From the NCBI GenBank assembly GCA_038904395.1, contig JBCKKC010000001.1:25759-89758 (forward strand): DNA of 64,000 nt, read 5' to 3'. Made by a program: the position numbers and the translations under genes. The stretch's first letter is position 1; every line of letters begins with the position of its first letter. Positions 27,408 to 27,600 of the stretch are shown here, one piece after another. The notes beneath the pieces are model-generated. The model was not told the DNA's origin and searched no databases. It saw nothing but the letters and a program-made list of their open reading frames with translations. This DNA is from Acidimicrobiia bacterium. GTDB lineage: Bacteria > Actinomycetota > Acidimicrobiia > UBA2766.

Positions 27408-27600
27408 GTTCAGCACCCTCCTCCGTCATCCTGAGCCCTGGCGCCAGCCAGGGCGAAGCAATCCAGGCTTTGCTGCCTTGCGAGCGCAGCGAGCAATTCA
27501 AATGGATCGAACATGCGCGTTGGTCTGCGGCTTCGCCACAGGTGGATCCTCACGGTCGGCTGGCGCCTCCCTCAGGATGACGAGAGGGGTGAATGGTTAT
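27408..27600. mobile_element. MITE-like repeat element, copy E7 (in the menB-menA spacer)
   Basis: CCGTCATCCTGAGCCCTGGCGCCAGCCAGGGCG .. TTGCGAGCGCAGCGAGCAATTCAAA .. GGTCTGCGGCTTCGCCACAGGTGGATCC .. CCTCAGGATGACGAGAGGGGTGAATGGTTAT. The right terminal repeat contains the menA ATG. Confidence 0.8.

Follow-up and report, generated by a model that had tools for sequence, protein, structure and literature searches.

A palindromic repeat whose inverted ends appear to supply start codons to downstream genes in an Acidimicrobiia bacterium

Genes that begin inside an inverted repeat end

The window studied here is a 64,000-nt stretch of contig JBCKKC010000001.1 from an Acidimicrobiia bacterium (assembly GCA_038904395.1), and all counts and statistics of the element described below cover this window only. 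Among its genes are sulfotransferases followed by menB and menA, a biotin carboxylase gene followed by atuA, and the gatA-gatB pair. Self-comparison revealed ~21 copies of a modular palindromic repeat, the element, of 95-280 nt each (3.2 kb in total, 5% of the window). A copy consists of modules in which a GC-rich hairpin is flanked by GTCATCCTGAG and CGTGAGGATCC, or a hairpin by GTCATTGCGAG and CGTGGCAATCC, together with central hairpins, the whole forming a long imperfect palindrome. Read outward, the ends run from CTCAGGATGAC or CTCGCAATGAC through a purine- or G-rich tract of variable length (for example GGAGGAC, GAGAGGG or GGGGTGGGGGAC) to (AC)G-TGA-ATG-GTTAC, closing with GTGAATGGTTAC; some ends contain an extra module of ~30 nt. 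This 12-nt end consensus is present with up to two mismatches at 18 element ends, including ends that face the 3' ends of genes. The strings GTGAATGG and CAGGATGACG occur 14 and 21 times in the window, compared with 2.4 and 0.16 expected. Ends with an intact ATG face gene 3' ends in at least seven copies (among them 12250, 28764, 43522, 46978, 49012 and 60556), which makes the terminal ATG a part of the element rather than of the genes. An in-frame TGA, overlooked in the initial annotation, stands immediately before it (G-TGA-ATG-G) and therefore makes this ATG the first start of its frame by construction.

Four long open reading frames (ORFs) begin exactly at a terminal ATG: menA, atuA, gatB and the sulfotransferase gene at 25302. 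The first three starts (27593, 43744 and 62075) had been placed inside the terminal repeat by the initial annotation, and the corresponding strings lie where it put them: ATGGTTATGGTT at 27593, ATGGTTAAACCG at 43744, with AGGGAG before it, and GGAGGACGTGAATGGTGCCC, which ends at 62068 of the minus strand. The sulfotransferase had escaped notice. An independent gene caller from a protein database picks the identical starts, giving proteins of 498 (GatB), 309 (MenA), 619 (AtuA) and 304 (sulfotransferase) residues, and the 20 nt upstream of each of the four starts are element DNA. An ORF of at least 300 codons is opened as first start by 4 of 17 intact ends but by only 24 of all 1,884 ATGs of the window (binomial P ~5e-5); within the window, the coincidence is thus above chance. 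A fifth gene, of the Glu/Leu/Phe/Val dehydrogenase family (32879-33937, minus strand), starts at a GTG inside a decayed end. Counted over the ~13 ends facing gene 5' ends, four to five carry the start.

The N-termini produced by these starts fit their families, as had been claimed: lengths match those of orthologues for GatB, AtuA and MenA. In gatB, no ATG, GTG or TTG outside the terminal repeat precedes the universally conserved (Y/F)E.VIGLEVH motif (FEPVIGLE in the window), and in the sulfotransferase gene none other than the terminal ATG precedes the P-loop motif VFFLGTGRCGSS. The only possible menA starts before the conserved W..A.R.PTL motif are 27593 and 27599, both at the element edge; the N-terminal length is normal for the family, and the MenA homologues, of which the nearest (46-50% identity) are from Chloroflexi, do not separate the two. 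The AtuA N-terminus, MVKP-LRIANCSGF, is of the same length as MSRP-, MTEP- and MTAP-LRIANCSGF in orthologues, and an alternative start is a TTG at codon 5 (43756).

Several details of the end differ from the first description. The 28-mer CAGGATGACGGAGGACGTGAATGGTTAC that had been quoted for it has no exact occurrence and represents a consensus, the nearest match being the gatB copy with two mismatches. The spacer between GGAGG and ATG, given as 7 nt, measures 6 nt. GGAGG precedes the ATG with this geometry in the gatB copy, whereas the menA copy has GAGAGGGG (27573-27600 reads CAGGATGACGAGAGGGGTGAATGGTTAT). A TAA in the opposite reading of the end had been proposed to terminate genes, which turned the element into a portable initiation and termination cassette. 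Only the initiation half of that idea holds: the TAA is never used as the stop of a gene, and upstream genes all stop before the element proper. An ORF at 1146-1550 that ends on an element TAA is spurious, the true gene, a Phd/YefM antitoxin, lying on the other strand. We conclude with high confidence, from the sequence and its homologues, that the terminal repeat would provide both the ribosome-binding region and the start codon of menA, atuA, gatB and the sulfotransferase gene.

Other element ends lie close to gene starts as well. The alpha/beta-hydrolase gene 8863-9882 is preceded by CAGGAGGACGT-ATG (9883-9893), a string similar to the element end CAGGATGACGGAGGACGTGAATG from which bases have been lost. 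Either chance or an eroded end that acts as ribosome-binding site may account for it. Beside menB and menA there is a cluster of three sulfotransferase-domain genes (22054-24039, minus strand; 24247-25170 and 25302-26216, plus strand). The first encodes a protein of ~660 residues, and probably starts at ATG 24039 or 24036, directly beside a truncated element copy and with no Shine-Dalgarno (SD)-like tract upstream. Two Phd/YefM antitoxin genes (1271-1558, minus strand; 11728-12036, plus strand) each directly abut an element end; a Fic/DOC-family gene (10641-11723, plus strand) lies upstream of the second, while no obvious toxin partner was identified for the first.

Gene junctions in relatives and the native starts

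The relatives used for comparison, mostly Acidimicrobiia genomes, are distant (~62-70% protein identity). One with 65% GatB identity has gatC, gatA and gatB side by side, with a GTGA overlap between the last two and no element. The gene order of the window, carboxyltransferase-biotin carboxylase-atuA-acyl-CoA dehydrogenase, recurs in Rhabdothermincola sediminis and an Acidimicrobiales genome, and in both the biotin carboxylase and atuA genes overlap by 4 nt (ATGA or GTGA). In the window, the gatA/gatB and the biotin carboxylase/atuA junctions each carry an element of 228-230 nt. A relic atuA start, ATG 43498, overlaps the biotin carboxylase stop as ATGCCTGA, beginning 5 nt before the stop codon, and excision of 43522-43749 (228 nt, 76 codons) joins it in frame to atuA. 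The excision product, MPDLSGPP(K/E)PLRIANCSGFYGDRL (MPDLSGPP(K/E)PLRIANCSGF), can be set against MTAGSDAPPREPLRVANCSGFYGDRL / MTAGSDAPPREPLRVANCSGF of Rhabdothermincola. Because the excision restores the ORF from ATG 43498, the element appears to have been inserted after about codon 8 of atuA.

Relatives that lack the element start atuA at the overlap, and the terminal ATG is new to this gene. Judged by this comparison and by the excision, the native atuA start is demonstrably stranded 246 nt upstream, and with ATG 43744 as its new start the protein would acquire a different N-terminus, MV…. In gatB, too, the terminal ATG likely replaced the native start, because the GatA tail is 5 residues longer than that of the relative and its TGA lies at the element edge; another copy has this edge sequence as well, which prevents reconstruction of the native gatB start. 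The proposal that the element has replaced native starts is therefore borne out for atuA and likely for gatB, and it is ambiguous for menA and the sulfotransferase gene. Excision was tried as a means of reconstructing the native starts of menA, gatB and the sulfotransferase gene, and gave ambiguous results owing to degenerate ends or to an outer extension shared with another copy.

Bridging frames and a probable translation relay across the element

All six tight co-directional junctions that contain a copy (gap ≤272 nt) are spanned by a stop-free ORF that runs through the element, a feature absent from the initial annotation (Table 1). At four of the six, the start of this bridging ORF overlaps the upstream stop codon as ATGA or TTGA; at the other two, an ATG lies 5 or 13 nt before that stop. 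The bridging ORFs end between 9 nt before and 14 nt after the downstream start. That leading to menB ends on the TAA of an element end, 9 nt before the menB ATG 26489, and that leading to the Phd/YefM antitoxin gene ends 4 nt before ATG 1516. A near-fit is found at the gatB/SnoaL junction, where an ORF (60582-60289, minus strand) ends 45 nt short of the start at 60243. Wide junctions (365-450 nt), which probably separate transcription units, are not bridged in any case. The bridging ORFs all use the same element frame and share motifs such as RH(P/C)EPW, LRAQRAIQ, CGFA.GGSSRS and SLRMT. Single element frames are stop-free in 26% of cases, compared with 15% after shuffling, and for copies within operons or genes, 11 of the 21 frames read along transcription are open, against 16 of the 84 remaining frames (Fisher P = 0.004).

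Mycobacterial interspersed repetitive units (MIRUs) insert at start codons, and the ORF within the repeat is coupled to the gene, as described in PMC12548453, which cites Supply 1997. At the six tight junctions of the window, copies similarly occupy co-directional operon junctions at the downstream start, and their internal ORFs overlap or abut the flanking stop and start codons. These arrangements are suggestive rather than conclusive of a translation relay like that of MIRUs.

Folding of the menA and atuA copies as RNA predicts extended hairpins with energies of -114 and -119 kcal/mol and z-scores of -5.2 and -3.2; in each, the opposite element end is paired with the SD-like tract and the ATG. 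For the menA copy, this predicted stem also takes in the menB stop codon. Such pairing between the ends agrees with the RNA-unfolding view of coupling (PMC12548453). Weak pairing is predicted for the short sulfotransferase copy. Neither intrinsic-terminator-like nor sigma-70-like sites were found inside the copies within 24000-31000, which is consistent with read-through transcription.

We therefore considered how a hairpin-rich repeat might be tolerated at such positions, and regard the following model as probable, though well short of certain. A non-coding palindromic repeat, similar to MITEs (miniature inverted-repeat transposable elements) or Rickettsia palindromic elements (RPEs), would have colonised a compact genome in which neighbouring genes natively overlap by 4 nt. 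Copies landing in or near the first codons of a downstream gene would cut off the native start, and the SD and ATG brought by the element would take over. The cut-off start, or another one overlapping the upstream stop, would then open a stop-free ORF through the whole element, so that ribosomes leaving the upstream gene could translate the insert, melt its hairpins and keep the RNA covered. Termination would occur at or beside the terminal TGA, and the same or fresh ribosomes would start the downstream gene at the adjacent SD and ATG. Insertions without this bridging geometry would be polar and hence lost, leaving in operons only those that fit. Such a relay matches both the reinitiation and the RNA-unfolding models of coupling (PMC12548453).

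Several observations weigh against this model. The counts behind it come from a single 64-kb window. The bridging-ORF statistic is moderate and the copies are mutually related, and any A, G or T before a TGA creates an overlapping start. The alternative starts of menA (27599) and atuA (TTG 43756) could be used instead of the terminal ATG, although both are still behind element sequence. A strong predicted stem hides the SD and ATG of the menA and atuA copies; in the gatB copy, the upstream end of which is deleted, the fold is not significant and the SD and ATG are essentially unpaired. SD-like cores precede 8 of 29 other genes, compared with a background of 11%, indicating a dependence on SD sequences that is modest and not universal. 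The analysis turned up neither a transposase nor a clear target-site duplication nor an empty site, and a model based on TA duplication leaves the atuA frame unrestored.

Under the simple cassette of the initial annotation, the downstream genes would be served by ordinary de novo initiation at the terminal SD and ATG, and the bridging ORFs, each a relic native start joined to an element frame left open by chance, would be untranslated leftovers that play no role. The GGAGG-6 nt-ATG geometry is canonical, the signals of the gatB copy are unpaired, chance alone often yields a start overlapping a TGA stop, and 26% of element frames are open in any case. Yet all six tight junctions are bridged and no wide one is, and open frames are enriched in the transcribed direction (P = 0.004). 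Moreover, menB and the antitoxin gene have no SD or terminal ATG but start 9 and 4 nt after the stop of a bridging ORF, and the signals of the menA and atuA copies are sequestered in their predicted folds. We consider initiation without a relay to be unlikely on these grounds, while still a serious competitor.

The coincidence of element ends and gene starts might alternatively reflect the choice of target rather than survival, the element actively selecting start codons or stop/start overlaps in the manner of MIRUs, which are described as inserting at start codons (PMC12548453). Of the ~13 ends pointing towards gene 5' ends, no fewer than 7 are at most 10 nt away from the start, ATGA is kept at the element edge in several junctions, and two copies share an edge that begins with ATGA. 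In contrast, many copies occupy convergent gaps or coding regions, adjoin stop codons or follow a tRNA, the insertion point in atuA is behind codon 8 and not at the ATG, and no conserved target flanks the copies, all of which makes active targeting quite improbable. That the true starts are downstream or non-canonical is more improbable still, verging on negligible: a longest-ORF rule would choose the terminal ATG merely as the first after the built-in TGA, and alternatives are available in menA (27599) and atuA (TTG 43756), but in gatB and the sulfotransferase gene the stretch from the end to motifs shared by all homologues offers no ATG, GTG or TTG, N-terminal lengths agree with those of orthologues, and the alternative starts lie within 12 nt of the element, leaving the ribosome-binding region in element DNA.

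Relay of ribosomes through the element, with loss of ill-fitting insertions, is thus the reading we prefer. A bolder version of it, which we hold to be doubtful but worth stating, is that the inverted end has evolved as an 'operon-safe' module composed of a stop-free body frame, SD, TGA and ATG, with the hairpin joining the upstream stop to the new start as a portable form of coupling. Such a module would allow a selfish palindromic repeat to enter stop/start overlaps and even the opening codons of essential genes. If so, the repeat would rewrite N-termini and make downstream translation depend on upstream translation across the genome.

Table 1 Element copies, genes and bridging ORFs of the window (positions counted from its first letter)
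Feature	Positions	Strand	Remarks
Short element copy upstream of second sulfotransferase gene	25205-25309	+	One hairpin module and both ends; end GGGAGGACGTGAATGGCTAC
Sulfotransferase gene, 304 aa	25302-26216	+	Terminal ATG is the sole possible start
Long-variant element copy, sulfotransferase/menB gap	26220-26478	+	End CATCGTGGTTAAC without ATG; menB start 26489, 10 nt on
Element copy filling the menB-menA gap	27400-27600	+	Left end GCAACGAGTTCAGCACC, degenerate; right end 27571-27600, CTCAGGATGACGAGAGGGGTGAATGGTTAT
SD-like tract and start region of menA	27582-27601	+	GAGAGGGG 27582-27589; in-frame TGA 27590-27592; ATG 27593; alternative ATG 27599
menA, UbiA family prenyltransferase, 309 aa	27593-28522	+
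Decayed solitary end GCCCTGGGGCTGAGGAATGCGGAGGACGTGGCGTG (GGGCTGAGGAATGCGGAGGACGTGGCGTG)	33935-33969	-	Supplies GGAGG and GTG start 33937
Element copy in 5' coding end of atuA	43522-43751	+
atuA, AtuA domain and ferredoxin-like domain, 619 aa	43744-45603	+	Starts at terminal ATG
Element copy between gatA and gatB	62068-62262	-	Standard end on the gatB side, 62068-62097; towards gatA, a deleted end GTAACCACGATC and an outer extension ATGATTAGTTCCAAGGGTT containing the gatA stop
gatB, 498 aa	60579-62075	-	Possible starts ATG 62075 or GTG 62072, both in terminal repeat
gatA	62259-63719	-	C-terminal tail 5 aa longer than in a 70%-identity relative
Reference full element copy	12038-12261		Both ends consensus, GTAACCATTCAC...GTGAATGGTTAC; convergent gap, ATGs unused
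Element copy in convergent gap	46795-46989		Consensus end 4 nt from stop of MFS gene; ATG unused
Element copy in gatB/SnoaL-like gene gap	60346-60567	-	Terminal ATG 60353 unused
Truncated element copy in frame inside atuA	45117-45233	+	Residues 458-497, SLRAKRAILPRHPEPWRQPGREDPGIRILRAKRASRNG; linker between two domains
Element copy in frame inside biotin carboxylase subunit gene	42940-43074	+	About residues 592-637 of gene 41181-43505
Further element copy	8600-8827
Further element copy	16225-16445
Further element copy	24038-24205
Further element copy	28540-28775
Further element copy	30287-30514
Further element copy	34085-34290
Further element copy	36546-36640
Further element copy	38293-38570
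Further element copy	48755-49023
Further element copy	59140-59270
Bridging ORF, sulfotransferase 1 to 2	25167-25301	+	44 codons; ATGA overlap; TGA abuts ATG 25302
Bridging ORF, sulfotransferase 2 to menB	26201-26479	+	92 codons; ATG 13 nt before stop
Bridging ORF, menB to menA	27388-27606	+	72 codons; ATGA overlap with menB stop; TGA 14 nt into menA
Bridging ORF, biotin carboxylase to atuA	43498-43743	+	81 codons; TGA abuts ATG 43744
Bridging ORF, gatA to gatB	62262-62062	-	66 codons; ATGA overlap with gatA stop; TGA 14 nt into gatB
Bridging ORF, gene 1763-2932 to Phd/YefM antitoxin gene	1766-1521	-	81 codons; TTGA overlap; crosses element 1547-1745

Relation to known repeats, mobility and neighbouring features

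The donation of start codons by repeats is already known in kind from MIRUs, from the Neisseria REP2 repeat and from the Borrelia repeats IR-A and IR-B (PMC12548453, PMC3184786). Like the element, MIRUs are short mobile repeats located in operons at gene starts, and contain an ORF whose overlap with the neighbouring stop and start codons relays translation, which keeps the harm of the insertion small (PMC12548453). They are direct-repeat units of 40-100 bp, often in tandem arrays and with no long inverted ends. In contrast, the element measures 95-280 nt, is palindromic with multiple hairpins, and has an inverted end in which SD-TGA-ATG would donate the first two to three codons of the host gene. 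Its copies are single and palindromic and form no tandem arrays. Unlike MIRUs, it also occupies convergent or divergent gaps, outside the six tight junctions. The lineage that carries it is unrelated to mycobacteria, and neither homology to MIRUs nor an organisation as variable-number tandem repeats was found.

REP2 and IR-A/IR-B supply a promoter, a ribosome-binding site (RBS) and an ATG to downstream genes (PMC3184786), and the element resembles REP2 in that, on sequence, an RBS and an ATG within the repeat serve the gene that follows. The difference is that these repeats have their own promoter, lack terminal inverted repeats, act in one orientation and head transcription units (PMC3184786), whereas the element has its signal in both inverted ends, with copies inside operons and no promoter-like site in the copies of 24000-31000.

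Palindromic repeats of Rickettsia, the RPEs, are tolerated in frame within proteins (PMC10969869), and two truncated element copies are likewise stop-free in-frame insertions in conserved protein genes, those for AtuA and biotin carboxylase. These copies add ~40-45 residues (SLRAKRAILPRHPEPWRQPGRED…) to interdomain linkers of two conserved enzymes of the Atu/Liu cluster. From ATG 41181, the biotin carboxylase has 774 residues, compared with 658-659 in relatives; it is ~115 residues longer than these and than the methylcrotonyl-CoA carboxylase (MCC) alpha subunit in the PDB. The linker itself is ~120 residues longer than in the relatives and the MCC alpha subunit, and the SLRAKR… segment is missing from the homologues. 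No supply of starts or an RBS is reported for RPEs, whereas the full-length element closes with a stop and then a restart signal. Its hairpin flanks, GTCATTGCGAG/CTCGCAATGAC, presumably resemble RPE sequence. In the same gene cluster, the carboxyltransferase and biotin carboxylase genes, which are 1 nt apart in relatives, are separated by ~970 nt (40214-41180), and this gap contains an unannotated minus-strand ORF (40341-40889).

The overall form of the element is that of a MITE. There are terminal inverted repeats, with 160 inverted pairs within the window, and the copies are small (<~300 bp), dispersed and numerous and contain no transposase gene. In common with Correia, ERIC and BOX repeats, the element is a small, non-coding, high-copy repeat with inverted ends that would be co-transcribed with genes, form long RNA hairpins and affect expression (PMC3184786, PMC10969869, PMC3049150). 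The effects known for those repeats are promoters, RNase sites, mRNA stability and new hypothetical ORFs, and BOX elements can encode start codons of new ORFs (PMC3049150); here, by contrast, conserved and even essential genes appear to depend on the element end. A 2024 review of the functions of prokaryotic MITEs does not mention donation of an RBS or a start codon. The element may thus be called a MITE by its inverted ends, size and copy number, and membership in a named family is not established.

Known cases of translational coupling share with the element junctions a start occluded by a structure that an upstream ribosome would open, and a stop and start only a few nucleotides apart (PMC12548453). 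They differ in that the structure and signals evolved in place, whereas in the window both would have been imported by a mobile repeat, the coupling itself being a reading of the sequence. The element differs from the known repeats in its MITE-like architecture with multiple hairpins, the stop-SD-start arrangement in both inverted ends, the apparent donation of codons to conserved proteins, and the different lineage. The findings suggest that a selfish repeat can persist inside the operons of a compact genome without silencing them, replacing native starts and rewriting first residues even in the essential gatB. They bear on how insertions avoid polarity, and present a natural, portable stop-SD-start module as a candidate coupling device. 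In repeat-rich metagenome-assembled genomes, start calls and small 'hypothetical' ORFs would also be affected.

Several modes of insertion were considered. Similar flanks were found at a single copy, 30287-30514 (AACCGTTC and ACCCGTTC). A TA target-site duplication of the type made by IS630-like insertion sequences (ISs), could be placed inside GG-T-TA-C, but the flanks are unsupportive and it breaks the atuA frame, which clean excision of 228 nt restores. Targeting of TTAC as by IS200/IS605 elements is not supported by the flanks, and an 8-bp duplication like that of IS66 is suggested by one copy only. The window contains no autonomous IS with the same ends.

The end pattern CTCAGGATGACG-N(4-16)-GTGAATGG gave 34 single matches in ~186,000 reference genomes, scattered over many phyla at chance level, not as a repeat and showing no further resemblance to the element; this end thus has no relatives in that collection. 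There was no match to the element in a plasmid collection searched by blastn in distant mode, Rfam returned only a tRNA, and a literature search with strings of the element sequence returned only primers. The hairpin module GGATCCTCACG-N-CTCAGGATGACG occurs at 117 loci in metagenome contigs, which are unrelated low-GC and gut contigs, and none of these loci has the GTGAATGG end. There, the ~40-nt module, GGATCCTCACG-(variable stem-loop)-CTCAGGATGACG, has exact flanks, compensatory changes in the stem and different outer ends. Its hosts include contigs of 30-36% GC (up to seven copies in 14.6 kb) and human-gut assemblies, and it corresponds to no Rfam family; from its sequence, it looks like a repeat module that crosses phyla.

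An outer extension, CCCTTGGAACTA(C/A)TCAT, is common to two copies (16445-16464 and 62246-62262). On the coding strand it reads ATGA(G/T)TAGTTCCAAGGG, and it abuts or overlaps the stops of gatA and of a Vgb-lyase-like gene, two unrelated genes. An inverted copy at 16213-16224, on the other side of the element at 16.2 kb, points to a composite element or to a further, outer kind of inverted end. The element copy 59140-59270, which has no recognisable outer end, follows a tRNA-Val gene (anticodon TAC, 59054-59130) within 10-15 nt. Beside another copy, a perfect 8-nt tandem array (GCTCCCGA, ~8 copies) occupies 30623-30688, just downstream of gene 30688-32772, and an 11/12 match to a sigma-70-like promoter lies near the array on the minus strand (30575-30546). 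A direct repeat of 108 nt at 15402-15674, inside gene 14702-16012, is unrelated to the element family; its two copies are 76% identical and lie 165 nt apart.

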